A stretch of DNA of 64,000 bases from a virus. Its lineage: Duplodnaviria; Heunggongvirae; Uroviricota; Caudoviricetes. The stretch is taken from positions 1 through 64,000 of the IMG/VR virus record IMGVR_UViG_2913177423_000001, one strand, 5' to 3'. Below, one piece after another: positions 1,446-48,094 of this stretch. The position numbers and the translations under genes are program-made. The notes below the pieces were generated by a model. The model saw only the letters and a list, made by a program, of their open reading frames with translations, did no database searches and was not told the origin of the DNA. How positions within the stretch are numbered: position 1 is the stretch's first letter; each line of letters opens with the position of its first letter.

Positions 1446-2052
1446 GGCTAATTATGTTCTTCTTAATTATGATGAGTTAAACGAAAAGGGACTGGCAAAA
1501 CTCGTCAAAGAAATCAGCAAAGGTGGTTACAAGATAGCGAGGGTGATCCCTGCCAGCAATGGCAGGAAGAAAGATGGGATCATGACACGCACGTTTACCC
1601 TTGTTGGTATTGATGAACAGACAATGGAAGTCCAGGTTAACGATACCGGAGATATATCTGGGATAAAACTGAACGGTAAAACAGTACCGTTCAAGCCAGT
1701 AAAAACAATGGCGGCTTTGGGGCAGTCTCTCGCGGCTTTATTTAATCGCGGAGCAACATCTTTCCAGAAATCATTAGCTCGAAAACTTGCTCGTGCAGCA
1801 AAAAATATTGATGAAGGAAATAAGAAGCGACAAGGGGTTAAATCCAACGCTCAGAAGTTAGCTGAAGCGAAAGAATCACGTGATGCGCTTCGTGAAGATA
1901 TCGCTAATGCTAACGACAAACTGGCTAAGATCCAAAGCAAGTCAGACAAGGCAATGCAAGATGCGGATAACGTTAAAGCGGCATTGTCTCAGGAACAAGC
2001 TAAGACGCGTGCGCTTAAAGAAGAAATCGCGCGTCTGGAGGATGAAGCATGA
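1435..2052 (+). CDS. hypothetical protein with C-terminal coiled coil
   Basis: ATG at 1435 with AAGGAG 6 nt upstream; Lys/Ala/Glu-rich C-terminus; stop overlaps next gene. Confidence 0.55.
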   Translation: MSNKANYVLLNYDELNEKGLAKLVKEISKGGYKIARVIPASNGRKKDGIMTRTFTLVGIDEQTMEVQVNDTGDISGIKLNGKTVPFKPVKTMAALGQSLAALFNRGATSFQKSLARKLARAAKNIDEGNKKRQGVKSNAQKLAEAKESRDALREDIANANDKLAKIQSKSDKAMQDADNVKAALSQEQAKTRALKEEIARLEDEA

Positions 2053-3998
2053 TTAAGAATCCCATACGGATCAATATTCAATCTACTTTCGCTGATACGA
2101 TTCCCGGTTATACACCGAGCCGCTGGTCTTCGGAGGATTTAAGTGAAGATGATCTGATTTTTGAAGCGGCTACATTAGAAGATATCGAGCTTGCCTATAT
2201 GGGCAATGAAATTCTTGTTGTGTCCGACGAAGCTATGTTTGAGGCCATTACTACGACCAGAATTAGGCTTGCACAAACAATGCGGGCTTTCGTGCGTGCG
2301 CTAAATCGTGGCTTGAATGGAACGAATATATCAGCAGGAACTGATGAAGCCGGGGCGGATGAAAATGGTCGGAATTGTATTGGCGGAGCAATTATCGGGC
2401 GTGTTCGTCGCGTAGCTAATATTCCTGTTTTAACAGCACAGATACCACTGACTGATGGGCAAAGCACAAGTATCATCTTCCACTCTCCAACCGCCGATGG
2501 CGCGAAAATCAAGAGTAATGATGAACTGGTTGCATTTCAGTTTTTACTTAATAAGCGTAACGTAACTCACGTTGTTGCCCCGATCGGCGGGAGAGATGTT
2601 TCTTTAAGCCAGGTTTGCCAGGCGCTTTCTAATTTGATTGAGCGTAACAGCGCAAAATTCAAGAAGGCAAAAGAGCGACAGGACAAAATGAAGGCGGATA
2701 TTGAGAGTTATCTCAATGAAGCTGATAAGCTGGCTGAAGAACGGTCAATGATGATTGAGCGGGTGGAAGTAGCGCAGCGTGGACTGACAGAAAAGCGCAA
2801 TGCCCTCGCGGAAATGCAGAAACAACTTGATGCACAGAAAGTCCTTAACGCAGAGTTGCAGGAAAAACGAGATAAGTTGCTGTCTTATAAAAAGAATAAA
2901 GCAAAAGAAAGAACTTTTAATGACCAACTTCGACACGTAAAACATAACCTTGCCACTGATGGTAAAACTACGCTGGATAACGGCGCTGTTGTAAATTATG
3001 TGACGTTAGATGGTGATAGCTTCGTTACGATCGCGGCACCAGAAGGTAATTTCAGTATTGATGTCGGTGACGTCAAAGGTGGCAGCCTGGCAGACGCGGC
3101 AACCAAACTACTTAAAGCCTATCGAGAACATAATGCTGATAAATACAAAGTAGATGTGTTGCCAGGACAGCCGGAGCCAACTGTTCAGTCACAGCCAGAA
3201 TTACAACAAGATTCTGATCCACAACCAGCATCTCCGCAAGATACTCAGCATGTAGGCAAATACCGCTATGCTCTTCAATCGCGCCCGGCGGGGGTTGGTG
3301 CGGTGCCGGATGGAAATACAGCCGTGCTTGACCGTCCCGACCAGGCTGACCCGTATTACGAGTATGCTCGTTACGGGATCATTACGTATGACCGTAAACT
3401 GACAGATGAAGAAGTCAGTCAGTATGAATTACGCTATCTACCTGATGACGATGAACTGAAAAATATGGCGGGGGAACTGGTTGCGTCCAGCATGGCAAAA
3501 CACATTGATGGCTATGTAGACCTGTTTGGCAGTGACTTGAAAACATTCAAGGCGCAAGTAAAAATTCTTTTCCGCAAAGAGTTTCCGAACGTGGCTTATC
3601 CGCTTGGTGATGGGGAGAACCTTTTCATTATGGACGTATATAACGCCCTTCAAAATCATTCAAACGAAGCAACGCCAGAGCCTGAATTAGCACCTGTAGT
3701 TGAGCCAGAATCACACCCACAAACAGAACCAGAGCAACAGCCAACGCCGGAAGATGCTGGAGAAGCGGCAACTGAAGCTGATCAGGAAGCAGATAAAGCG
3801 TTGGAGTACCTTAAATCCGTCCCGGTGCAGTTTACATCCCGCGATCTGACGGTAATCAGTGCCGAACTTGACCATGTGCAGGAAGCTGCAAACGCTCTTA
3901 TCAGTGCTGGTCGATACGACGAGAACGAATCAACGGTTGGCGCAGCAGTTGACTACCTGATCAACATTCTGGCTGAAATTCAGCAGGGAGGTGCTTAA
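2049..3998 (+). CDS. large acidic coiled-coil protein, possible DarA-like head-internal protein
   Basis: 649-aa ORF coupled to upstream gene; size and position after invertase and lysis-like genes recall the P1 darA operon; no motif-level confirmation. Confidence 0.5.
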   Translation: MIKNPIRINIQSTFADTIPGYTPSRWSSEDLSEDDLIFEAATLEDIELAYMGNEILVVSDEAMFEAITTTRIRLAQTMRAFVRALNRGLNGTNISAGTDEAGADENGRNCIGGAIIGRVRRVANIPVLTAQIPLTDGQSTSIIFHSPTADGAKIKSNDELVAFQFLLNKRNVTHVVAPIGGRDVSLSQVCQALSNLIERNSAKFKKAKERQDKMKADIESYLNEADKLAEERSMMIERVEVAQRGLTEKRNALAEMQKQLDAQKVLNAELQEKRDKLLSYKKNKAKERTFNDQLRHVKHNLATDGKTTLDNGAVVNYVTLDGDSFVTIAAPEGNFSIDVGDVKGGSLADAATKLLKAYREHNADKYKVDVLPGQPEPTVQSQPELQQDSDPQPASPQDTQHVGKYRYALQSRPAGVGAVPDGNTAVLDRPDQADPYYEYARYGIITYDRKLTDEEVSQYELRYLPDDDELKNMAGELVASSMAKHIDGYVDLFGSDLKTFKAQVKILFRKEFPNVAYPLGDGENLFIMDVYNALQNHSNEATPEPELAPVVEPESHPQTEPEQQPTPEDAGEAATEADQEADKALEYLKSVPVQFTSRDLTVISAELDHVQEAANALISAGRYDENESTVGAAVDYLINILAEIQQGGA

Positions 3999-12064: not shown

Positions 12065-12436
12065 ATGAGACTGACAAGAAGAAAAAAAGAGATACTCAGC
12101 TACTTTGAACCGGATAACCGTGAGTGGGTGACAATGGAGATTGGATCGCCTCCGTTTGATGTGTCCGGGGTGGCTTACTTGCTGCATAGTACGGATGCAA
12201 TCGACAAACAGTATTATCTCGAATCAACAAGGCGAACACTTGAGGCTATGGTGCGTGATGGCCTGCTTGAACGGGTAAAATCGTATGAGAGGCGACAGAA
12301 CAGGACTCAGAGCGGTTGTGGCGATGGTGTTCGTTGTATGGTTGTTCGTTATGGCCTTCCAGGTCAGTGTGCTGTTATGCGAGATGATGCCGGGGGTGAA
12401 CACGCAATAGACGGTGAGTTCGTTCGTATCGCCTGA
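12065..12436 (+). CDS. hypothetical 123-aa protein upstream of darB-like gene (Ulx position)
   Basis: ATG at 12065; stop abuts the giant ORF; function inferred only from position. Confidence 0.45.
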   Translation: MRLTRRKKEILSYFEPDNREWVTMEIGSPPFDVSGVAYLLHSTDAIDKQYYLESTRRTLEAMVRDGLLERVKSYERRQNRTQSGCGDGVRCMVVRYGLPGQCAVMRDDAGGEHAIDGEFVRIA

Positions 12437-15400
12437 CCTTTTCCGCTCTTATTCTTCCAAATTAACACACTCCATACCCTTTCAAACCGTACCGCTACAG
12501 GCGGATTTAACGGTTTTGAGGGGGCTTCCTTTGGACAAAATAATTGATTCAATTAGCCAGGCCACCAGCATTGGGGCGCTGATTGAAATTGTTAGTCGGT
12601 TGCATAAACCGCGATCTGTTGCGACCTTTGGCGTTAAGAAAGTCGATGGTGTCAGCATTCAAAAAACACGGCGGGCAGCAAACAACGCCGCAGTAGAGCT
12701 TCTTAATTCCCTTCCGCCCGGATTCGATGGGGCGAAATTAACTGAAGAACAGCGTCAGATTCTCGCCGGGTATACAGGTGAAGGCGGCCTTACTGACGGC
12801 GAGGGCAGCCAATACGAATACTACACACCACAGTTTATGGCTGAAGGTATATGGGATCTGTTTGCTGACTACGGTATTGATGGGGGTCATGTACTGGAAC
12901 CATCAGCTGGCACGGGTATTTTCCAGGAGACAAAACGGCAGGGAATGATAATGACCAGCGCCGAGCTGTCTCCGATCTCCGGTCGAATCAACCAGCTGTT
13001 GCACCCGGAAGACGATGTGAACATTGGGGCGTTCGAGGCTCTGGCGGCGAAAGACGCAATGTATGACCACGCTGTTGGTAACGTACCGTTTGGCGAAGGC
13101 CGTTCCGGCGTTGCAGGGCTTGATCCGGCATATGCAAACGAGAAGAACGTTGGCAATTACTTTGTGCTGCGCACGATCGACAAGGTTAAACCTGGTGGGC
13201 TTATCGTATTGGTGGTGCCGAATGGCATGACTGATGGTACGAAATACAAAAAATTGCGCGATAAAGTCAGCCGTAAAGCGGAATTTTTGGGCGCGCATCG
13301 TATGCCTTCCGGTACGTTCAGTGAATCAGGTACAGATACCGTGGTGGACGTATGGGTATTGCGTAAACATCCAGAAGCCTTCCTGGAGATGATCCCCGAT
13401 ACGGACGATTCGACGCTCAAATCGGCAAACGTCCTTTGGGATACCTTTCTCAAAGGGAAATGGTTCACTACGGAAGGAAAACGCTTTGTTTACGGCGATA
13501 TGGAGCGTACCAGCTTCCGCAATACCCTGGTGGTGAAAAAGGACGGTCGTGTATCCAATGAGTCGATGAAAACCGCGCTATCTCGTCGCTTTGATAGTCG
13601 CATCAATTGGGATTTGCTCGGCGTAACTACTCAGGCATGGCAGGGCGCGAAAGTGGGCGATAAACGCCTTGTAGGCGGCATCTGGCATGAGTTTGATGGC
13701 CTGAAATGGGTCAAGGACACGACAACCAAATCCTCCGCGCTTGATGTAAGCCGATATGGTGTTTCGACGTTTGGCGATCTGCAGATCGCGTTTCAGTCAA
13801 CAAATGGCATTCTGGCGTTGTCATGGGACCAGATATCGGCGATCGCGTCCGACTATCCATCGGTTATCAGTGATGAAGTAGCTGCAATGATTCGCTTTGC
13901 AGGCAAGCAGCGAGAAAAAGACAGAGAGCGCGTTATGCGCGGCGCACTGATAGGGCAGTTGATCAACAAGGCGCTTGATTTGCGTAACCTGGGGGTGAAT
14001 GTTGATGACAAACTGGCAGATGCATCCCGCCTGGCGGCAGCAGAAGTTGCGAAGTATGGACCACCGCACGCGATTAAGCTGAATGGGATTGTTGAAGCTG
14101 GCGCTAAAAACTGGATGACGTTCACTGGGAACGTGAAACAGGATGGCTCTACTTCGGACCTTCTTGCCGGACGACTTGATGTAACTAATGGCGCATCAGG
14201 TATCGACTTTGCTCGCCCGGAACAGGTTGTTACACACCTTTTCAGCGATGTGGCCCTTAATCCGATAACACTGGACGATTTCCGTGAGGCGTTTACTGGC
14301 GAACTGCCAGAAGACGACGATGCCGCTCTGGAATACCTGGCTAAATTTGAAGATATCGCTATTGATGGGTATGGCTGCCTGCTACCAATGGACCGCGCCA
14401 CCAGCGGCGACATTGCAACCAAAACAGCATTGCTGGTGGGCTGGCGTGATGCAGCAACAGGTGAGCAGAAAGCGAACTTTGAGCGCCAGTTGGCGAAAAT
14501 CGAAGAGAAACGCATTTTCACGCCACTAAATAAAGTCACCGTTAATCTGAATGCCCGCTGGCTGGACCGCCGCTTGATAAAAGAGTTCCTGGCAGAACAG
14601 GGCTATGACGAGTTTAAGTACACAGAACCTGATCTGAAGGTCGTCGATGGCATTCTGGTATCCCCGGACGATTACGAAGGTAAGGACGGGGTATTTACTG
14701 GCTATCAGCTACGAACCGTAAACGGCAAAAACGGGAATGAGTTCAAGAAGGCCAACAATAAAGACGGCTTCCTGAACCAGTTAGAAAACTACCTGAACGG
14801 CGTCAAACCGCGAGGGCAGAACGCTAACGAGTACCTGGATAAGATTGCTCAACTTGAAGTTAGCTTTAACGACTGGTTACGCACTCACCCGCAGGCTGAT
14901 CAGATAGCCCGCGACTATAACGACGCATTCAATGGCTTCATCCCGTTTACACATTCTGACGCACCGCTTGGCCTGGAAGGGATTAGTGGGAAGCGCATTC
15001 CTCTGACTTATCAGAATGAGGAAGTTCGTCGCTTGTCAGAAGATGGGCGCGGCATCATGGGATTTGGCACCGGGCTTGGTAAAACCACGACTGCGCTTGC
15101 ACTTGAGGCGTATAACTTCGAAACAGGCCGAACTAAACGCACCTGTATTGTTGTCCCGAAAGCGGTTTATCAGAACTGGTATCACGAGGCTCAGAGCTTC
15201 TACAGTCCAGAAGCCTTCTCAAATATGATGTTTATCGGGCTTGATGAAGTTCGTGATGACGGCGGCAATATTCTTACCGCGCCAGTGCTTGATGAAAATG
15301 GTGAACCACGTCTGGACAGAAACGGTCAGCCTCTTACCCGCAATGTGGTGAAAGAGTCCTCCAGTGCCGTTATCGTTCAGCGCATGAACATGATCCCGTC

Positions 15401-18400
15401 GTCAAATTGGCGAACGGTCATCATGACAAAAGAACAATTCGCGTCTATCCCGCTACGAGAAAAAACCATCGAGGAGAACTCACAGCAAGCTGTCTTTAAT
15501 GCTGTTGAAATGGGGCGTCTTGACCTGGCGTCTGGCAAGCACCGTGACGCGCAGAAGAAGAACAAGATTAAGGACCAGGCCGCAAATACCGGGACCACGA
15601 AGAAGCAGAATATCCCGTACTTTGAGGATATGAACTTCGATAGCGTGATTGCCGACGAAGGGCATAACTACCGCAACTCATTTAATGCCGGGCGTGAAGC
15701 GGGGCAGATGGCATATTTGCCTAACCCGGCAGTATCCAAAATGGCCCGCGACATGGCTGTAAAAGCTGCGTACATGATGAAACGCAACAACGGGCGCGGA
15801 GTAGTTATGCTGACGGCAACACCGCTGGTGAACAGTCCGATTGATGCTTTCAACATGCTGTCTACTGTTATTCCGCAGGAAGAGTGGATGCGCATGGGCA
15901 TTATTACGCCGGATGATTTCGTTCGTGTGTTTGGCAAAACTGCCACCGTTCAGGTCCAGAAAATTTCCGGGGAAGTGGAAGAGAAGCAGGGGCTGGTGGG
16001 CTTCCAGAACCTTGATGGTCTGCGTGGTATTTTCCACCGTTGGACCACTCTGAAGACTGCTGCGGATGTTGGAGCGACGGTCAAAATCCCCGACATCATC
16101 GAGAATACCTTGCAGATCCCGATGACAGGGGAGCAGGAGGCTGCTTATGAAGAGCTTCGCAAGCGTGCACAAGAATTAAGTCGTAAAGATGCGCTGACAG
16201 TCGATGAAAGCGGGCATATCACAAGCGAAAAGCCGGATGACTTCATCTTCTCCATCATCCGCGACATGGATAAGGTTGCTATAGATCCGGATCTGTATGC
16301 CAGTGCGATTACATTCCAGTTCCCCGTTGAGCTTGCAGACAAGGTAAAAGCTATTGCTGATGGCCTGCCAAAAGTAGCTGGCGGTAAAGTGGCAGATGAT
16401 GCAGACGAGGCCGAGGAAGACGGCGCTGGCGGGCTGGTTAGTACGCGTACCAGCAAGGTAGTGAAGACCACCTTTAGTGAACATCCGGCGCATGTTGAAA
16501 TACGTGCCAGCATTGAACTGGAGGCTGAAATACTGAAGGCCATTGCTGCCGCCGGGATTGATATGCAGCAGGTATCACACCCCATCCCGCCGAAGTATGC
16601 CGCGCTGATCGAAAACCTTCGTGAAGGCCTGAAGAACGGTAAACAAATCGTCTTCATTGATGAAAAAGCCCAGCACCAGAAGCTGCGCCGTATTATCGCC
16701 AGTGCACTGCAAATGCCGGAGCAGGAGATAGGCATTATCAATGCGACGACCGTTAGCCAGGCTGGCGGCATCAAGCTGAAGAAGGTGAATAAGCCGACCG
16801 AACCTACTCCGAATAAAAACGGTGAATACAAAGAAGGGGCATGGGAAACCTACTACAGCAAACTTGCCCAATATGAGGATTATCTCTCAGCTAAAAATGA
16901 TGCTGGCCTTGAGGGTATGGAAGGCATTGCCGCCGACTATAACGAAGGTCGCACGCGCATCATTATCTGTAACAAGAAGGCTGAAGTAGGTATTAACCTG
17001 CATATCGGGACAACCGATATCCACCACCTGACACTACCCTGGACACCAGCCAGTATCGACCAACGAAATGGGCGCGGTGCGCGCGTAGGTTCACCGCAAG
17101 AGAAGGTCAATGTTCACTACTATTGTGGCAAAGGCACATTCGACGACTTCCGTCTGGATACGCTGAAACGTAAGAAAGACTGGATCAAGATGGTGATGAC
17201 CTCCGACATGTCAGAGATCGCCAATGGTGATGCGGATGATGCTGATGAACGCGCCATTATGCTGGCGGCAAACCCGGAAGAACGCCGCGCAATCATGGCT
17301 CGCCAGGCGCAAGAGCGTGAAGAACGTCTGAAACTGAAAGCACAGCGCGAGGCCAACAATGCTCTCGATATCTACCTGAAAGCGGCAAACGCCGCCGGAA
17401 AAGATATCGGCATGATGGAGACAGAACTGAAAAGCGCGATGGAACAGATAGAGTATTACCAGCGAAATCTTGACGACCTGATAAAAGCGGGTACGAACAG
17501 GAATGGGCAAAAATACGCGCTTGAGCAGTTGAGTAGCTACAGAAAACGTGCGCGGGTGCTGCGGTTTGCGATCACCAGGGCAAAAGACGCGGATACCATA
17601 ATGAAACGCTCTCGTGGTGATGTGGAGCGCGCTATTAAGTCTGGTGTGCTGGATATCAGTATCGATGTTATTCAGAACCCACAGGAATATATGCGCACTG
17701 ACAAGAATATCCTGTTGCATAAAGGTAGTTATTACCGTGCAGTCATTGATGATCGCGAAACAACAGCGATTGTCCGGGTGGAAAAAATTGACGGTGAAAA
17801 AGCACAATACCTCTGCCGTATCGCCTGGCTGGATAGAGCAAGTCGTTACGCTCGATCACCGGGGTCTATCGTTACATTGCCGTTTGACTCTGTGATTGAA
17901 GCGGTAACTTTTGAAGAGGGGGTAGCTGAATCGCGCGCAACGGCTGCGCGTGGTGTTCAGTGCCACCAGCTATCAACAATACTTACTCGCGATCAGTTCT
18001 ATGATGCTATTCGCAATGGGGTAATGAATGTTATTGCTGGTAAACCTGGTAATGCATGGGGCGGTGGGTCAGCTATTAAATACTGGGCATATCGCACAGA
18101 TGATGGTCAGATCGCGCTGTCATCGGCCTATGATGGCGTGATAGGCCAAAAAATCGGGCGAGCATCGGATATAGCACCTGAGCGATGGATATATCCTGAT
18201 GGCAACGACGAGGCGCTGAAGCGTGAAGTGGCAAAAATACAAGCCAGTGATAACCCGCTGAATATCGTGGACGGCGAGGGATTCCTCCAGGCATTGTATG
18301 GGTATGATTACATCCAGGGAATGCAGGCATGGGGCGCACAGGCAACGATGGATGATGTTGCCCAGGAGTTCGAAAACTGGATGGCTGGGCGTGGTCTGTC

Positions 18401-19367
18401 AGGTCGCTCGCTTAATAAAGTCACTTCTGAAGATATTCTTAGCTTGTTCCGCAAACCGTCCGGAGAAGGTCTGGAATCATTCTGGAGGACCGTGCTGGCA
18501 TACCGTTTATTCAAGGGCAGGATGAAAGCCTTTAGCAATATCGATGATATTGAACGGATGTTTAATCAGGTCAAGATCGCGAAAATTAAGACGAAGATCG
18601 AAAAGACACGTTCTGCGCTGGTGGCCTGGCGCGATGCATTGTTTGAGCAATATAAATCACTCAGTGATGCAGATGGATGGGCGGCACTGGAACAGTTGGC
18701 GAATAATGGGGTAGATGGAGCGAAACTCGCCATAGTCCAGGCTGATAACCCCCTGGAATCACCGGCAGCACAGTGGATTAAGGTGGGTGCTGTCATCAAT
18801 GCCTTTGATGAAAAACACATCAGTAAGGACGATTTTGCTGATGCTGTTTCCCTTAATCGCCTGGTAGAAATGGCTGTCCGCCGCGCTCGTGAGTTGAAAG
18901 ACGGTGACTATGTGAATGAGTTGCCAGATGCGCTCAAATCGGCAACGTGGCAAGACTATGTATCGCTGAAAAACGGCGGGGCCACTGAATCAGAGATCGC
19001 GGAAAGGCTTGAGCAGGCTGAAAGCAAAAGAGAAGAGCAGGCGGCAGAGGCTGAAGCCAGGGCTGATGAAGCGGCGAATGATGACTATATCATTGTGGTT
19101 AATGATAAGCCGATTCGCGCTAAGGCACGTGTTCGCGGGCGCTGGTGGAGTGTCAGCGAGGACGTTGGCGCGGTTTATCTCATTGCCGATCAGCCAGGTT
19201 CCTCGACAATACGGAACGCCAAAGACGCCATTAAGAAGATTGGCGGGCGTTTCTGGAATTTTGAAGCAAACCCGGTTGCTGATGTGAACTTTGACCGTCC
19301 GGCATGGATGGTATCTACGCGTTACTCGGTAGATGAACTGCGTAAAATAATAACCAACGCGGCCTAA
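12414..19367 (+). CDS. darB: DarB-like giant methyltransferase-helicase, putative anti-restriction protein
   Basis: 2317-aa ORF; SAM-MTase motifs LEPSAGTGIF and NVPFGE, helicase motifs GFGTGLGKTT, DEGH and QRNGRGARVGS; true start probably TTG near 12531 after GAGGGG. Confidence 0.8.
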   Translation: MSSFVSPDLFRSYSSKLTHSIPFQTVPLQADLTVLRGLPLDKIIDSISQATSIGALIEIVSRLHKPRSVATFGVKKVDGVSIQKTRRAANNAAVELLNSLPPGFDGAKLTEEQRQILAGYTGEGGLTDGEGSQYEYYTPQFMAEGIWDLFADYGIDGGHVLEPSAGTGIFQETKRQGMIMTSAELSPISGRINQLLHPEDDVNIGAFEALAAKDAMYDHAVGNVPFGEGRSGVAGLDPAYANEKNVGNYFVLRTIDKVKPGGLIVLVVPNGMTDGTKYKKLRDKVSRKAEFLGAHRMPSGTFSESGTDTVVDVWVLRKHPEAFLEMIPDTDDSTLKSANVLWDTFLKGKWFTTEGKRFVYGDMERTSFRNTLVVKKDGRVSNESMKTALSRRFDSRINWDLLGVTTQAWQGAKVGDKRLVGGIWHEFDGLKWVKDTTTKSSALDVSRYGVSTFGDLQIAFQSTNGILALSWDQISAIASDYPSVISDEVAAMIRFAGKQREKDRERVMRGALIGQLINKALDLRNLGVNVDDKLADASRLAAAEVAKYGPPHAIKLNGIVEAGAKNWMTFTGNVKQDGSTSDLLAGRLDVTNGASGIDFARPEQVVTHLFSDVALNPITLDDFREAFTGELPEDDDAALEYLAKFEDIAIDGYGCLLPMDRATSGDIATKTALLVGWRDAATGEQKANFERQLAKIEEKRIFTPLNKVTVNLNARWLDRRLIKEFLAEQGYDEFKYTEPDLKVVDGILVSPDDYEGKDGVFTGYQLRTVNGKNGNEFKKANNKDGFLNQLENYLNGVKPRGQNANEYLDKIAQLEVSFNDWLRTHPQADQIARDYNDAFNGFIPFTHSDAPLGLEGISGKRIPLTYQNEEVRRLSEDGRGIMGFGTGLGKTTTALALEAYNFETGRTKRTCIVVPKAVYQNWYHEAQSFYSPEAFSNMMFIGLDEVRDDGGNILTAPVLDENGEPRLDRNGQPLTRNVVKESSSAVIVQRMNMIPSSNWRTVIMTKEQFASIPLREKTIEENSQQAVFNAVEMGRLDLASGKHRDAQKKNKIKDQAANTGTTKKQNIPYFEDMNFDSVIADEGHNYRNSFNAGREAGQMAYLPNPAVSKMARDMAVKAAYMMKRNNGRGVVMLTATPLVNSPIDAFNMLSTVIPQEEWMRMGIITPDDFVRVFGKTATVQVQKISGEVEEKQGLVGFQNLDGLRGIFHRWTTLKTAADVGATVKIPDIIENTLQIPMTGEQEAAYEELRKRAQELSRKDALTVDESGHITSEKPDDFIFSIIRDMDKVAIDPDLYASAITFQFPVELADKVKAIADGLPKVAGGKVADDADEAEEDGAGGLVSTRTSKVVKTTFSEHPAHVEIRASIELEAEILKAIAAAGIDMQQVSHPIPPKYAALIENLREGLKNGKQIVFIDEKAQHQKLRRIIASALQMPEQEIGIINATTVSQAGGIKLKKVNKPTEPTPNKNGEYKEGAWETYYSKLAQYEDYLSAKNDAGLEGMEGIAADYNEGRTRIIICNKKAEVGINLHIGTTDIHHLTLPWTPASIDQRNGRGARVGSPQEKVNVHYYCGKGTFDDFRLDTLKRKKDWIKMVMTSDMSEIANGDADDADERAIMLAANPEERRAIMARQAQEREERLKLKAQREANNALDIYLKAANAAGKDIGMMETELKSAMEQIEYYQRNLDDLIKAGTNRNGQKYALEQLSSYRKRARVLRFAITRAKDADTIMKRSRGDVERAIKSGVLDISIDVIQNPQEYMRTDKNILLHKGSYYRAVIDDRETTAIVRVEKIDGEKAQYLCRIAWLDRASRYARSPGSIVTLPFDSVIEAVTFEEGVAESRATAARGVQCHQLSTILTRDQFYDAIRNGVMNVIAGKPGNAWGGGSAIKYWAYRTDDGQIALSSAYDGVIGQKIGRASDIAPERWIYPDGNDEALKREVAKIQASDNPLNIVDGEGFLQALYGYDYIQGMQAWGAQATMDDVAQEFENWMAGRGLSGRSLNKVTSEDILSLFRKPSGEGLESFWRTVLAYRLFKGRMKAFSNIDDIERMFNQVKIAKIKTKIEKTRSALVAWRDALFEQYKSLSDADGWAALEQLANNGVDGAKLAIVQADNPLESPAAQWIKVGAVINAFDEKHISKDDFADAVSLNRLVEMAVRRARELKDGDYVNELPDALKSATWQDYVSLKNGGATESEIAERLEQAESKREEQAAEAEARADEAANDDYIIVVNDKPIRAKARVRGRWWSVSEDVGAVYLIADQPGSSTIRNAKDAIKKIGGRFWNFEANPVADVNFDRPAWMVSTRYSVDELRKIITNAA

Positions 19368-36743: not shown

Positions 36744-36775
36744 AAAAGCCCGCCTGGTCTGGCGGGCTTCTTTTC
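36744..36775. terminator. bidirectional intrinsic terminator
   Basis: GCCCGCC-tggtct-GGCGGGC hairpin with A-run before and T-run after, between convergent genes. Confidence 0.7.
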
Positions 36776-37163
36776 ATAACACAGGGCAATCGTCAAATTC
36801 CCCACTCCGGGCATCATTGATGATGTGGGTGATCACGCCAAACACAGCATTGCTGCCTGTATATCCATCGTCATCCTTCGGCAACGCTTCCTTCTTGCCG
36901 GATCTTAAATCCTCCAGGTGCTGATGCGGATGCTTCCGGTATCTCTTTACGCGATATTCCCCCTCTATAGCACATACAAGCAGCGAACCATCAACTGGAG
37001 TGAGTGAGGAATCGACCACAAGCAACGCTCCTTGCAATATGCCTTCGCGGTAATGGCTGTCAGCCGCCCGCATGAAGTAGGTGGCTGATGGATGCCTGAT
37101 TAGGTGCTGATCAAGAGATATGCGGCGTTCAGCGTAATCCGCCGCAGGAGAAGGGAAGCCCAT
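36774..37163 (-). CDS. humD: UmuD-prime-like protein (HumD-like)
   Basis: 129 aa; S24 peptidase core LLVVDSSLTPVDGSLLVCAIEGEYRVKRY lacking the UmuD N-terminal arm, as in P1 HumD. Confidence 0.8.
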   Translation of the reverse strand: MGFPSPAADYAERRISLDQHLIRHPSATYFMRAADSHYREGILQGALLVVDSSLTPVDGSLLVCAIEGEYRVKRYRKHPHQHLEDLRSGKKEALPKDDDGYTGSNAVFGVITHIINDARSGEFDDCPVL

Positions 37164-42102: not shown

Positions 42103-42657
42103 TCACTCTCCTTTGATGCGAATGCCAGCGGCGCGGATAGATTTCCATTGTTCCCACATTCGGTTGAAGTCTGTGCCTGATAAGGTTGCGTTACGGTATC
42201 CAGTTTCGGTACGCAATCCTTCAAGCGTCGATTTGGAGATACAAATTGAATGCATTACCCATGATTCAAACAAATCACGCTCCCGAGCTTCGCAACTTTG
42301 CTTACTCATATATTCGATACGATCAGCCATCGCAGCGCACTCTTCAAAGTTGCTAAATGCCTTTCGCTCCCATTCAGCGCATTGTTTTCTAAGCTCTGCA
42401 ATCAGCTTGTCTTTGCCTTCCAGCTCAACGCGCAGCTTCCCTACCGTTAGCGCAATATCCTCATTCTCCTGATCGCGGTGTTTGATGTATTGCTGGTTTC
42501 TTTCCCGTTCATCCAGAAGCGCTAGCACAATGTGTGGCGTTATCAAGGACTCAAATTCGGTAACAGCTTGCTCACCTCGCTTGTAATTCTTAATCCCACC
42601 TAAATTTTTCGCGTTCTGTGCCGCCTCACGCAGTGCCTGGTAATTAATTTCGCTCAC
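42103..42657 (-). CDS. coiled-coil protein, member of a three-gene paralog family
   Basis: shares the L-VELE-K-IAEL coiled-coil motif with 42654..43361 and 43681..44382. Confidence 0.5.
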   Translation of the reverse strand: MSEINYQALREAAQNAKNLGGIKNYKRGEQAVTEFESLITPHIVLALLDERERNQQYIKHRDQENEDIALTVGKLRVELEGKDKLIAELRKQCAEWERKAFSNFEECAAMADRIEYMSKQSCEARERDLFESWVMHSICISKSTLEGLRTETGYRNATLSGTDFNRMWEQWKSIRAAGIRIKGE

Positions 42658-43361
42658 TGGCTGCCTCCTTTGCGAAGCTCTGCGGCAAAGTCAGTGGCAT
42701 GTTCACCGAGTAGTTTCCAGTTATCGCGTATATCAGATGCAAGCGACTGTTCGGATTTTGAGTTACATTTCTGTGCAAACATCTCCACCCCCTGCGCCCG
42801 CACTTCAGCCAGGAAAGCGCCAGTAGCAGGAGTGTCAATGCAAACACTGTCACGAAGGATGAAGAACGCATTAAGCATTCCTCTTTCTGGTACATCGTCC
42901 TGGCATTCCTCATATGCAGCCAATGCATCCATCATTTTCTGACCGAATTGCGGAGGTTGTGCAGATTTCAGTGCTATATTCTCCGCCGCCAGCGTCGCGC
43001 GATTGCTCTCCAGTTCTGCAATGCGCTGTTTTGCGGCATCAAGTTCAATCGACAATTTTTCCAACTGCTCTTTATGCTTTTTGTATGCCTGATATGCGTG
43101 CCAGGACTGTCCTTTGCGCACACTTTCAGTAATATCAGAAATCTGTTCTGGTGTTAGCGTGGTCAGTGGCTGCGCCGGGAAAATCAGCACTTTCCCGGCA
43201 TCCCAATCAAAACCCGCCTGAATTGACTGAACCTCAACTGATGGTGTTGAACCAATGCTACCTGGTGAATGGATAACAATCGCCATGTCCATATCACGAT
43301 GCTGGCAGTGTTTGTTGGACAAGATACGATTCACCAACTCAGAAAATTTGGAAAATTTCAT
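42654..43361 (-). CDS. coiled-coil protein, member of a three-gene paralog family
   Basis: [20 protein letters not shown] and C-terminal [15 protein letters not shown] match the paralogs; start likely ATG at 43361. Confidence 0.5.
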
Positions 43362-43684
43362 GCTGATTCCCTTTGCTCTTCTTGGATAATGTTGTTGCAA
43401 TCTTTCACGCACTCGTCACAGATGAAAACGTTGTCCCCGGCAATTAACTTTTTGACGGTGTGCTGGGATTTATTGCAGAAGCTGCAATAAAGCGTTGGAC
43501 TGGCTGATACGGATGGTGCTCCGGATGTCAGCCGCGCGATGTCGTCCTTGCGGCGCAACATCACACGGCAGCACTCAGCAAGTTTCTCCGGGGAGATTCC
43601 TTCCTCCGTGGCGAGTGCCTCCAGTCGTTCAAGCACGTGGAAGGCTTTTTCCTGGGTAAATGCAGAATGTGATATGGCCATCAT
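43358..43684 (-). CDS. ClpX-type zinc-binding-domain protein
   Basis: C-terminal [39 protein letters not shown] is near-identical in pattern to the ClpX N-terminal C4 zinc finger. Confidence 0.65.
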
Positions 43685-44382
43685 CTCTCCCCTTCAAAGT
43701 TCGGGCGCAGGCAGGATTGTCCTTTACGAAGCAGGGCTGCGAACCTGTCAGCCGCATCCGCGCAAGCAGAAGCAACGGAATCAAAAAATGGATCATCTCC
43801 GGTATCGCGCATCGTCAAAGCGAATGCCTCCAATCCCTGAGCCTGTATTTCTACAAGATAAGCCTCAGATATAGTGCTTTTCGCTTCACCTAACTCGTTA
43901 TGAGCTATGTTCGCTACACATGCGATGTCTATATCTGGATGATTAATTGGGAGATGGCTAAGAATTGCCTCAAGTGCTGCTTTTTTGTTTTGGCATTCCG
44001 CCACCAGCGCCCCGCTATTGCTTTCCAGCTCTGCAATACACTTTTTAGCGGCCTCCAGCTCAACACGCAGCTTCTCAAGCGTTAGGGCCATCTCCACTTT
44101 CTCGTCCAGCAGTTCAATCACATCAGGATCGCTACCATCAACTACTGATATGCGCGAATTTTTGTAATGCTCGTCAGCATAAGTTCGTCCAGTTTTGAAG
44201 CGTCCGTCAGCCTCCATGCCGGAACAGGCATAAACAACATGTGATCCAGATATGCGTTCCATTGACATTTCCTCGCCACAAACAGAGCATTTAGGCGCTG
44301 GTTTCGGTGAATAACGTTCACGTAACGGATAGTAAAGCTCGATCTCCGCCAGTTGCTCTGGCGTTAAACCTTCAGACTTCAT
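43681..44382 (-). CDS. coiled-coil protein with N-terminal Cys cluster, member of a three-gene paralog family
   Basis: [20 protein letters not shown] and [16 protein letters not shown] shared with paralogs. Confidence 0.5.
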
Positions 44383-45582: not shown

Positions 45583-46161
45583 ATGCAGAGACAGAGTTAT
45601 TGGGAGAAACAGAGACAAAAAGCCATGCAAAAACTGGCTGATCCGGAATGGCGGGAAGAGCAAAGGGCAAAACGTCTTCAGCAGGCTCAACGCCAGCAGC
45701 AACGCGCAAGGGAAAAAGCCGCATCGCCTGAATATCGTCAAAAGAAACTTGAAAAAGTGAGGCAAAGTGAACAGCGCAGAAGAGAGAGGGCGGCGTCAGC
45801 CCTCCCCAAAAAAACGCGCCCGTCACGCGGATTAAAAGGGAGATCACTCACAGCAGAAGAGCGCCGGATACAGGAGGCTATAGGCAAACTCCCCTGTATT
45901 GCCTGCCATCTTCACGGGAAGCATAGCCCTGTCGTATCTCTCCACCACATATTTGGCAGAACGGCTAAAGATGCCCATAAATACGTTCTCCCTTTGTGTA
46001 AATGGCACCACCAGCACGCAGCGCCAGCAGAGATCCGCGAACAATATCCCTGGTTGGTTCCTGTTCATGCTGATGGAAAAATAGGCGGGAAAGCAGATTT
46101 TATACGGCACAATGCCGAAGAGATGACGCTCTATCAGACGGTGCAAGAAATGGTGAATTAA
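45583..46161 (+). CDS. ref: Ref-like HNH endonuclease
   Basis: 192 aa; highly charged disordered N-terminus followed by HNH-like Cys/His cluster CIACHLHGKH and CKWHHQ, as in P1 Ref. Confidence 0.7.
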   Translation: MQRQSYWEKQRQKAMQKLADPEWREEQRAKRLQQAQRQQQRAREKAASPEYRQKKLEKVRQSEQRRRERAASALPKKTRPSRGLKGRSLTAEERRIQEAIGKLPCIACHLHGKHSPVVSLHHIFGRTAKDAHKYVLPLCKWHHQHAAPAEIREQYPWLVPVHADGKIGGKADFIRHNAEEMTLYQTVQEMVN

Positions 46162-46952: not shown

Positions 46953-47168
46953 ATGGCTACTACCCCTACCCCAACTCATTCTGAATTTATCTGGCGTTTC
47001 TATTCCTGCCAAAAACACCTGTATATCTGCGTAATGGCTGCTACCGAAGCAGAAGCTCGCTCATACCTTCCTGATACTCCCTGCATTTTTGCTGCCCGCT
47101 TCACTCTTGATGCGATGGAGATCCTCAATTACTGGAATCTGCCGATGAACTGCGTGGAGGTGCACTGA
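46953..47168 (+). CDS. hypothetical 71-aa protein, paralog of 10184..10408
   Basis: ATG with AAAGGAGG upstream; shares EFIWRF and AATEAEAR motifs. Confidence 0.5.
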   Translation: MATTPTPTHSEFIWRFYSCQKHLYICVMAATEAEARSYLPDTPCIFAARFTLDAMEILNYWNLPMNCVEVH

Positions 47169-48094
47169 TGAATCTGTCCATCTCTCAAAAAGCGACAATG
47201 ACCAGCATTGAGATCGCGGAGCTGGTAGGTAAGCGTCCTGATAACGTTAAACGCACCATTGAACACCTAGCGGAACGGGGCGTAATATCTTTTCCTCAAA
47301 TTGAGGAAAAGCCCACCGCAGGGCGCCCGGCGAGCTATTACGTCTTCGAAGGCGAGCAAGGCAAGCGCGACAGCATTATTGTCGTCGCACAGCTTTCTCC
47401 TGAATTTACCGCCCGGCTGGTGGACCGCTGGCGCGAACTGGAGAATGCCAGGGGACCGTTAAAAACAAAGGCCGAAATTCTGGCTGAAATGGCGCAAATG
47501 CATCTTGAGCATGAACGCAGGATCAACGCCGTAAATGCCCAGGTAGCCGAAGTTTCGGCACAAGTGTCCAGGGTCGCTGAAACCGTCGAGCAAATAAAGA
47601 AAGGCAATATGCCGGAAGGTTACATTGGCTACCGCCAGCTGGCGGCGAAATGTGGCTTGACTGAAGCCAAATGTCGCAACCTGGTCAACGCTTACCGTAT
47701 CCCCACCGATACGCATGAGTTTTTAACGCCCGATGGTTTGCTTGCCCGACGCTCCATTGTGGCCCTGGCCCCCTTCCGGAAAGCCTTTAAGCAGGTTATG
47801 TCGGAGGCCGAACCACGTAATAAACGCTGGTATCATCCAAAAATGGGCCTCTTTCAGGCAATCCACCATCCTTTACCGAAAATCCCAAAAGATAATCTGT
47901 CACTGCATACAGCCAGAGAGAAGATCAGAAGTGGATATGCAACGGTATGCCGTCGTGCCTCATGGTCTGAAGGTGTATGGGTATGGCCCGAAGGCGGATC
48001 AAGGAAGCACTGGCGCACTATCCGAGATGGTAAAATTCATGCTATTGATTTAGCGCCAGAGGATATGGTTGCTATGGACTGGATTGTTAGTTAA
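47168..48094 (+). CDS. Rha-family phage regulatory protein fused to a C-terminal small domain
   Basis: N-terminal MTSIEIAELVGKRPDNV; colinear with 10408..11115 plus 11112..11312 combined. Confidence 0.6.
   Translation: MNLSISQKATMTSIEIAELVGKRPDNVKRTIEHLAERGVISFPQIEEKPTAGRPASYYVFEGEQGKRDSIIVVAQLSPEFTARLVDRWRELENARGPLKTKAEILAEMAQMHLEHERRINAVNAQVAEVSAQVSRVAETVEQIKKGNMPEGYIGYRQLAAKCGLTEAKCRNLVNAYRIPTDTHEFLTPDGLLARRSIVALAPFRKAFKQVMSEAEPRNKRWYHPKMGLFQAIHHPLPKIPKDNLSLHTAREKIRSGYATVCRRASWSEGVWVWPEGGSRKHWRTIRDGKIHAIDLAPEDMVAMDWIVS

Follow-up and report, generated by a model that had tools for sequence, protein, structure and literature searches.

What use might a phage have for the N-terminal docking domain of ClpX when the ATPase is not attached to it? 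The question is raised by a gene at positions 43358–43684 (minus strand) of a 64,000-nucleotide (nt) stretch of caudoviral DNA, positions 1 to 64,000 of the IMG/VR record IMGVR_UViG_2913177423_000001, which is referred to below as the window. The initial annotation, made from the sequence without database searches, described the product as a phage protein in which a ClpX-type zinc-binding domain (ZBD) follows a unique N-terminus, and suggested that such a free domain could titrate ClpX adaptors or substrates. The gene and its product, here called the ZBD gene and the ZBD protein, were divided as follows, the gene itself being taken from the list of open reading frames (ORFs) and the sequence.

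43358..43684, minus strand: ZBD gene, 108 residues, with helical hairpin, linker and ClpX-type zinc-binding domain
43520..43657, minus strand: N-terminal family-specific domain, residues 10–55, a predicted antiparallel two-helix hairpin
43493..43519, minus strand: flexible linker, residues 56–64
43376..43492, minus strand: ClpX-type C4 zinc-binding domain, residues 65–103
43484-43486 (C67), 43475-43477 (C70), 43418-43420 (C89) and 43409-43411 (C92), minus strand: Cys codons
43685..43694, minus strand: Shine-Dalgarno-like sequence AAGGGGAGAG, read from the sequence, within the last codons (..FEGER, then stop) of the upstream gene

It was found that residues 66–102 matched the Pfam family PF06689 (zf-C4_ClpX) over profile positions 2–39 of 39, with an E-value of 6.6e-18 and a score of 64.8 bits against a gathering cutoff of 27 bits. 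By BLASTP, residues 65–108 aligned with residues 13–56 of Escherichia coli ClpX, a query checked against the K-12 clpX translation, with 31 of 44 positions identical (70%), 37/44 positive and an E-value of 4e-20. The cysteines were spaced C67-x2-C70-x18-C89-x2-C92 and aligned to C15, C18, C37 and C40 of ClpX (Met1 counted), so that the alignment proposed in the initial annotation as a check on the ligands left all four in place; they did not vary in any of 30 relatives or of 33 distinct ZBDs of the family. Over the 39 residues quoted in that annotation 29 were identical, and its wording that the C-terminal 40 residues match the ClpX zinc finger almost residue for residue was thus slightly generous, though fair. 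The solved ZBD structures PDB 1ovx and 2ds5 were matched by phmmer at ∼1e-16. In the AlphaFold model of the protein, whose mean predicted local distance difference test (pLDDT) score was 82.6, residues 65–107 formed a zinc ribbon followed by a helix, and the predicted treble-clef ZBD (pLDDT 83–93) superimposed on 2ds5, 2ds6 and 2ds8 with 0.5–0.9 Å, about 0.6 Å, over 38–41 residues. The statement that the protein lacks an AAA+ module was borne out, since the full-length ClpX models NF003745 (48.1 bits, cutoff 359) and TIGR00382 (44 bits, cutoff 370.75) stayed below their cutoffs, with a match confined to profile positions 5–50. These results demonstrated that the ZBD protein's C-terminal part is a true ClpX-type zinc-binding domain without the ATPase, and that the resemblance is far beyond chance. 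The phage domain shares with that of the host homologous sequence, the C-x2-C-x18-C-x2-C ligands, the predicted treble-clef fold and the pocket residue F16, but it is not mounted on an AAA+ ring and stands at the C-terminus rather than the N-terminus, after an unrelated helical hairpin.

The similarity was even higher in P2-type relatives, in which up to 32 of 39 residues (∼82%, counted by eye from the translation) were identical to the E. coli domain. At the DNA level, the ZBD codons and those of E. coli clpX were 61% identical, with proportions of synonymous (pS) and nonsynonymous (pN) differences of 0.89–0.97 and 0.24–0.28, and blastn gave no connection between the ZBD gene and clpX, which is present in every E. 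coli genome. Saturated synonymous sites together with a low pN and the missing blastn match point to long-term constraint, in which the ClpX-like protein sequence has been held by selection; recent capture from the host clpX was ruled out on the same grounds. F16 and I46 of ClpX belong to a hydrophobic pocket that is used by lambda O, SspB, RssB and also trigger factor (PMC7804408). The equivalent of F16, F69, was unvarying in 33 of the 33 distinct family ZBDs, and the position of I46 was occupied by V in 17, I in 13 and L, A and G in one each, and was therefore hydrophobic in 32/33 and V or I in 30/33. The ClpX positions V33, I35, V40 and I47 were also kept in the phage family.

The N-terminus, which had been taken for a unique stretch of 60 residues, turned out to be conserved throughout the family. 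The AlphaFold model placed antiparallel helices at residues 11–28 and 32–53 (pLDDT ∼83–93), followed by a linker of lower confidence (mean pLDDT of 65 for the block 51–60), the length of which differed among subfamilies. R20, A25, E27, R44 and D48 were constant across three subfamilies related by 47–52% identity and in the protein P0034, and the acidic residues E27 and E28 at the tip of the hairpin were constant or nearly so. When a 61-position profile of the hairpin was compared with 1.84 billion representative proteins, 13 matches were obtained at E<=1e-3; the credible ones were all hairpin-plus-ZBD proteins or truncated copies, and the remainder were low-complexity repeats. Pfam searches at E<=10 with 15 N-terminal fragments returned noise, the RHH_5 family appearing in one of the 15 at E=0.05, and Foldseek searches against PDB and BFVD matched the ZBD part and gave no match to the hairpin. 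The ratio of nonsynonymous to synonymous substitution rates (dN/dS), calculated by the Nei-Gojobori method on 22 distinct DNA sequences, came to 0.31 in the N-terminal domain and 0.55 in the ZBD, with ∼0.9–1.25 in the linker between them. Low values in both domains and a value of ∼1 in the linker are what a protein of two domains joined by a neutrally evolving tether would show, and its N-terminus is a conserved family-specific domain and not a unique tail. The copy in the window is a mosaic, with an N-domain of one type and a ZBD of a type otherwise paired with 'ECSRVILRRKNDIARL' N-domains, implying that the domains have been exchanged at the linker.

The whole protein, hairpin included, matched phrog_6797 (E=2.1e-53, residues 2–107 against profile positions 1–106 of 107). 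Homologues were found in Escherichia phage D6 (orf93, 79% identity, NC_050154.1 78777-79097), in ∼108-kb phage-plasmids (PhiR41_1 and CMS-2020a, 72–73% identity), and in phage P88 and P2-like prophages (52% identity). In the P2-like prophages, the gene lies downstream of replication gene A in the early block, adjoining ogr and the portal gene; in lambdoid prophages, its place is the nin-like region, downstream of the replication genes. A DNA match was present in 221 of 5,426 complete E. coli genomes (∼4%), at 128 chromosomal and 106 plasmid places. Purifying selection on both domains, and homologues in several temperate-phage types, indicate that the ZBD gene is a real gene conserved in relatives; its initial description as that of a phage protein also held, the phage here being a phage-plasmid. 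At the IMG/VR loci L114 (6001-6273) and L115 (6001-6252), a frame shift just past C92 fuses the ZBD gene to the following gene, which starts MKLSKFSELV...; these frame-changed copies could be either pseudogenes or natural fusions.

The family is already catalogued by its domain, as 'ClpX C4-type zinc finger protein' in PGAP and as phrog_6797, and represents a known domain in a new setting, off its ATPase, joined to a helical domain of its own and distributed over temperate enterobacterial phages. Members carry the label 'carboxylate--amine ligase' in GenBank and older RefSeq records (D6, P88 and many E. coli assemblies), the PGAP name being the current one; none of the domain searches run here backed that label. 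Full-text literature searches yielded neither a paper about free-standing ClpX ZBDs of phages nor a functional study of the phrog_6797 family, and the phrase 'ClpX C4-type zinc finger' had one match, a contig discarded from a virome. The ZBD protein matched no defence profile of PADLOC-DB 2.0 at E<=0.1, and its neighbours in the window and in the P2-like prophage of UTI89 gave only a weak coiled-coil match; a defence role was rejected on this basis.

Free ClpX-like ZBDs were also encountered outside this family. They include phrog_12435 (named 'protease'), phrog_5259, a 65-residue 'Clp protease' of Pseudomonas phage PP9W2, a protein of Caulobacter phage Cr30 and proteins of IMG/VR contigs; most are 60–140 residues long, lack the ATPase and come from phages of many hosts. 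They differ from the ZBD protein in that the phrog_6797 hairpin is missing, and their extensions are unrelated to one another. Among the IMG/VR loci, L120 (ORF containing 3093-3221) encodes a 303-residue protein with a C-terminal ZBD, and L118/L119 and L121–L126 encode proteins of 70–140 residues. Because stand-alone ZBDs with unrelated extensions occur in many viral contigs, the domain seems to be used by phages again and again as a portable module.

At the 5' junction, the stop codon TGA of the upstream gene (43683–43681) overlaps the first ATG of the ZBD gene (43684–43682) in an ATGA arrangement, which recurs in relatives; at the 3' junction, the stop codon TGA of the ZBD gene (43360–43358) overlaps the ATG of the downstream gene (43361–43359). 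Given these overlaps at both ends, the ZBD gene sits closely between its neighbours in a polycistronic block that runs leftward. Translation from a second in-frame ATG, at 43681, would give a product of 107 residues. This ATG lies 5 nt past a Shine-Dalgarno-like GGGGAG, which favours the 107-residue product, and this length matches that of an identical NCBI protein, 'ClpX C4-type zinc finger protein [Escherichia sp. E14S1]', of 107 residues. A scan for promoters and terminators found none near the gene. On the opposite strand, an ORF of 111 residues (43539-43874, plus) overlaps the ZBD gene; it is probably spurious, since the pattern of selection over codon positions favours the minus-strand frame.

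The N-domain of ClpX is a docking platform, to which the adaptors SspB and RssB, UmuD-type tethers, and the substrates lambda O and MuA bind. We tentatively favour, at somewhat less than even confidence, the reading that the ZBD protein acts as a dimeric decoy of this platform, an 'anti-adaptor' that would compete for adaptors or for N-domain-dependent substrates. As expected from homology, the ZBD would fold, bind zinc and dimerise; the hairpins would pair into a four-helix bundle, which would stabilise the bivalent dimer or offer a second binding surface. The dimer might then trap adaptors or substrates by their ZBD-binding tails or degrons, for which the isolated E. coli domain provides a precedent. 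Adaptor- and N-domain-dependent degradation by ClpXP would drop as a result, and substrates recognised by the pore would be left untouched. Candidate beneficiaries may include replication initiators of the lambda O type, the antitoxins Phd or MqsA, UmuD'-like HumD and RpoS.

Several published observations bear on these steps. Purified ClpX ZBD added in trans inhibits the RssB-mediated breakdown of sigma-S carried out by wild-type ClpXP (PMC7226468), and the His-tagged isolated ZBD binds SspB-tail (XB) peptides with dissociation constants of 35–82 nM (PMC12373786). Since the free E. coli ZBD inhibits RssB-dependent turnover and binds XB peptides, titration of ClpX ligands by a free ZBD appears biochemically feasible. 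The ZBD is required for degradation of lambda O (PMC7804408), the ClpX N-domain is bound by unfolded MqsA antitoxin (PMC8808172), and Phd of P1 is a ClpXP substrate (PMC10286901). The decoy is further favoured by the observation that the gene is kept in several types of temperate phage, downstream of replication or early genes, with dN/dS <1 in both domains. Also in its favour are the homology of the ZBD to ClpX, its likeness to the host domain in spite of saturated synonymous sites, the unvarying F69, the known action of phages on host proteases, and the humD-like gene of the window together with humD and phd-doc of related D6-like plasmids.

Other observations weigh against a decoy. About ten positions constant in ClpX are variable among the phage proteins (G18, S20, H22, E23, K26, A29, P31, L42 and D45), G18, E23, A29, L42 and D45 being surface positions next to the F16/I46 pocket and the equivalent of L42 being Asp in the window protein; the ClpX set for this comparison comprised 12 distinct proteobacterial ZBDs from a genome-contig scan in which 79 of 80 loci were genuine clpX (ZBD and AAA+), and it is biased by the search pattern. 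Such variation implies that the mimicry is not perfect, and some ClpX-type contacts may have been lost or retuned. The high similarity of the ZBD could also derive in part from structural demands on a zinc domain of 40 residues that is an obligate dimer, and not from mimicry of its ligand surface. The hairpin is under stronger constraint than the ZBD (0.31 vs 0.55), and was never seen without it among the 1.84 billion representatives; a simple decoy has no need of a hairpin, and a pure decoy model leaves this conserved part unexplained. Literature searches gave no experimental or interaction evidence for the phrog_6797 family, expression and timing of the gene are inferred from gene order only, and tblastn, with hand-typed queries, detected no homologue of lambda O or Phd in the 64-kb window.

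Among known protease modulators, RexB is a membrane protein. With the anti-adaptors IraD, IraM and IraP and with RexB, PinA and gp4.5, the proposed decoy would share selective stabilisation of substrates by blocking a delivery step (PMC7226468, PMC10286901). There is no kinship of sequence or fold, however; the Ira proteins bind RssB through unrelated folds, and Lon is the target of PinA and gp4.5. A decoy that copies the docking domain of the protease itself, as proposed here, would be a mechanism distinct from those of the Ira proteins, PinA, gp4.5 and RexB.

An alternative that we regard as unlikely, yet worth weighing, is that the protein works independently of ClpX, with the zinc ribbon as a generic module for dimerisation or binding and the hairpin as the acting part, for instance as a small regulator of transcription or replication built like the DksA/TraR type, or a DNA binder resembling ribbon-helix-helix (RHH) proteins. 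The hairpin is the more conserved half and carries the invariant or nearly invariant acidic tip, the gene stands among early regulatory and accessory genes, and stand-alone ZBDs with many unrelated extensions, one of them in a protein of about 300 residues, occur in diverse phages. The sequence G29-I30-S31 was read by us as loosely similar to the helix-turn motif of RHH proteins; the G-x-S turn is lost in P2-type relatives, however. With DksA/TraR regulators, including phage TraR-like proteins, the ZBD protein shares a helical hairpin, a four-Cys zinc module and the character of a small early phage protein. It differs from them in its ClpX-type zinc module, in helices of 18 and 22 residues, which are shorter than the coiled coils of DksA/Gre proteins, and in a flexible linker to the zinc domain, which speaks against a rigid DksA-like body. 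No Pfam match to zf-dskA_traR or Arc/CopG was obtained, beyond the single marginal RHH_5 hit. Membership of the RHH and DksA/TraR families was rejected as unsupported by Pfam, the 1.84-billion profile search and Foldseek against PDB and BFVD. The ZBD is moreover unusually ClpX-like despite saturated synonymous divergence, which counts against a ClpX-independent role.

It is improbable, in our estimation, that the protein is a re-targeting adaptor, whose ZBD would form heterodimers with that of ClpX, or whose hairpin would dock on ClpX, so that the other domain brings a host or rival-phage protein for degradation. Two domains joined by a flexible linker resemble tethering adaptors, and a conserved, family-specific hairpin is expected of a specific binding surface. 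ZBDs are dimerisation domains, as in the dimer of PDB 1ovx (PMC7804408), and the surface positions of the phage ZBD evolve relatively fast (dN/dS 0.55). Within the ClpX hexamer, however, the ZBDs pair with their neighbours at very high local concentration, and invasion by a free ZBD would be unfavourable; no candidate target was identified, and nothing in the neighbourhood is strictly co-inherited with the gene.

A combined scheme, which we hold to be decidedly improbable, would make the protein a two-part 're-programmer' of ClpX. The ZBD would join the ClpXP adaptor network, either through capture of adaptor tails or through a pairing with the ClpX N-domain, and the hairpin would hold a host, defence or rival-phage protein, so that the choice of substrates would be rewired and not merely damped. 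If this were true, the unrelated ZBD extensions in other phages would represent a general, modular viral domain mimicry directed against AAA+ proteases.

It is barely credible that the gene is a passenger without function, the decaying remnant of a captured clpX 5' end that travels with a highly mosaic Ea22-like region; the data on selection and conservation largely refute this. In its favour, recombination junctions make the region a strong mosaic, two IMG/VR loci have frameshifted copies fused to the next gene, and several database entries are truncated. Against it, three subfamilies at 47–52% identity keep the entire architecture, dN/dS is <1 in both domains and ∼1 in the linker, the cysteines are unvarying, a Shine-Dalgarno sequence and translational coupling are present, and there is no DNA-level similarity to host clpX.

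The surroundings of the ZBD gene identify the type of replicon and its nearest partners. The genes to which the text refers are listed here by position.

2049-3998, plus strand: DarA (DarA_N and DarA_C)
12414-19367, plus strand: DarB-like SNF2 protein, 2317 residues
31759-32787, plus strand: Cre-like tyrosine recombinase
36774-37163, minus strand: HumD-like S24 peptidase, an analogue of UmuD' (E=7.5e-10 to Pfam Peptidase_S24), ∼6 kb downstream of the ZBD gene
42654..43361, minus strand: downstream gene, 235 residues, a near-invariant N-terminal module of ∼117 residues (phrog_6026) followed by an Ea22-like coiled coil
43681..44382, minus strand: upstream Ead/Ea22-like gene, 233 residues, Pfam Ead_Ea22 E=3e-9, phrog_368
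45583-46161, plus strand: Ref RecA-dependent nuclease
47168-48094, plus strand: Rha/Ant-type regulator

The best matches of the window were Escherichia phage D6 and ∼90-kb E. coli plasmids. The P1-type hallmark genes (DarA, DarB-like, Cre-like, Ref and Rha/Ant-type) indicate that the window derives from a P1/D6-like phage-plasmid; no match to the P1 C1 operator consensus was found in the 64 kb. The ZBD gene lies within a mosaic run of Ead/Ea22-like and DUF genes, which starts at a DUF4406 gene divergent from ref. In the Ea22-like mosaic genes (42103-44382 minus in the window, and relatives L084–L117), the C-terminal motifs ..NFEGER and ..GIRIKGE, each followed by the stop codon, were recurrent, and their codons provide the following gene with its Shine-Dalgarno sequence, stop and start codons overlapping as ATGA. 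Such junctions have the look of recombination linkers between modules.

The upstream Ead/Ea22-like gene is translationally coupled to the ZBD gene by the ATGA overlap. The upstream neighbour differs among relatives, being Ea22-like in most loci. The downstream gene, which starts MK[FL]SKFSELVNR, is the immediate next gene, overlapping by ATGA, in 29 of the 38 family loci; the AlphaFold model of its product was poor (pLDDT 61, N-domain ∼50). Its phrog_6026 N-module was found in >350 protein clusters (351) with many different C-termini (DUF551, Ea22-like and others), and also in phages without the ZBD gene. As the module is far commoner than the ZBD gene, it appears to be a frequent neighbour and not an obligate partner, the link being one-way, and a dedicated two-gene system of the ZBD gene and the downstream gene was not supported.

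UmuD and UmuD' are delivered to ClpXP via the ClpX N-domain, and a functional link between the HumD-like gene and the ZBD gene is therefore possible. In a close plasmid relative, the genes on the same strand run on to ppp, hot, humD and phd-doc, and in related D6-like plasmids, humD and phd-doc were located on the same strand ∼7–8 kb downstream of the ZBD gene.

ClpXP sets the stability of lambda O, MuA, P1 Phd, UmuD/D' and RpoS, and much of this control runs through the ClpX N-domain. The decoy interpretation of the ZBD protein is plausible, with an in-vitro precedent, but incomplete, and does not amount to a demonstrated new system; should the protein act independently of ClpX, it would be just another of the small proteins that phages make early. 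With ∼4% of complete E. coli genomes and analogues in many other phages, the family is frequent enough to be of consequence. The full-text searches gave no report of phage-encoded mimicry of the ClpX N-domain for any phage. Phage action on host proteases is known from T4 PinA and T7 gp4.5, which act on Lon, and from lambda RexB, which blocks ClpP-dependent degradation (PMC10286901). If the decoy is true, ClpX would join these phage-manipulated proteases, and the ZBD protein would inhibit adaptor-guided proteolysis selectively, by mimicking the protease's own docking site. Lysogeny, the maintenance of plasmid-prophages or toxin-antitoxin-based defence could then be affected.

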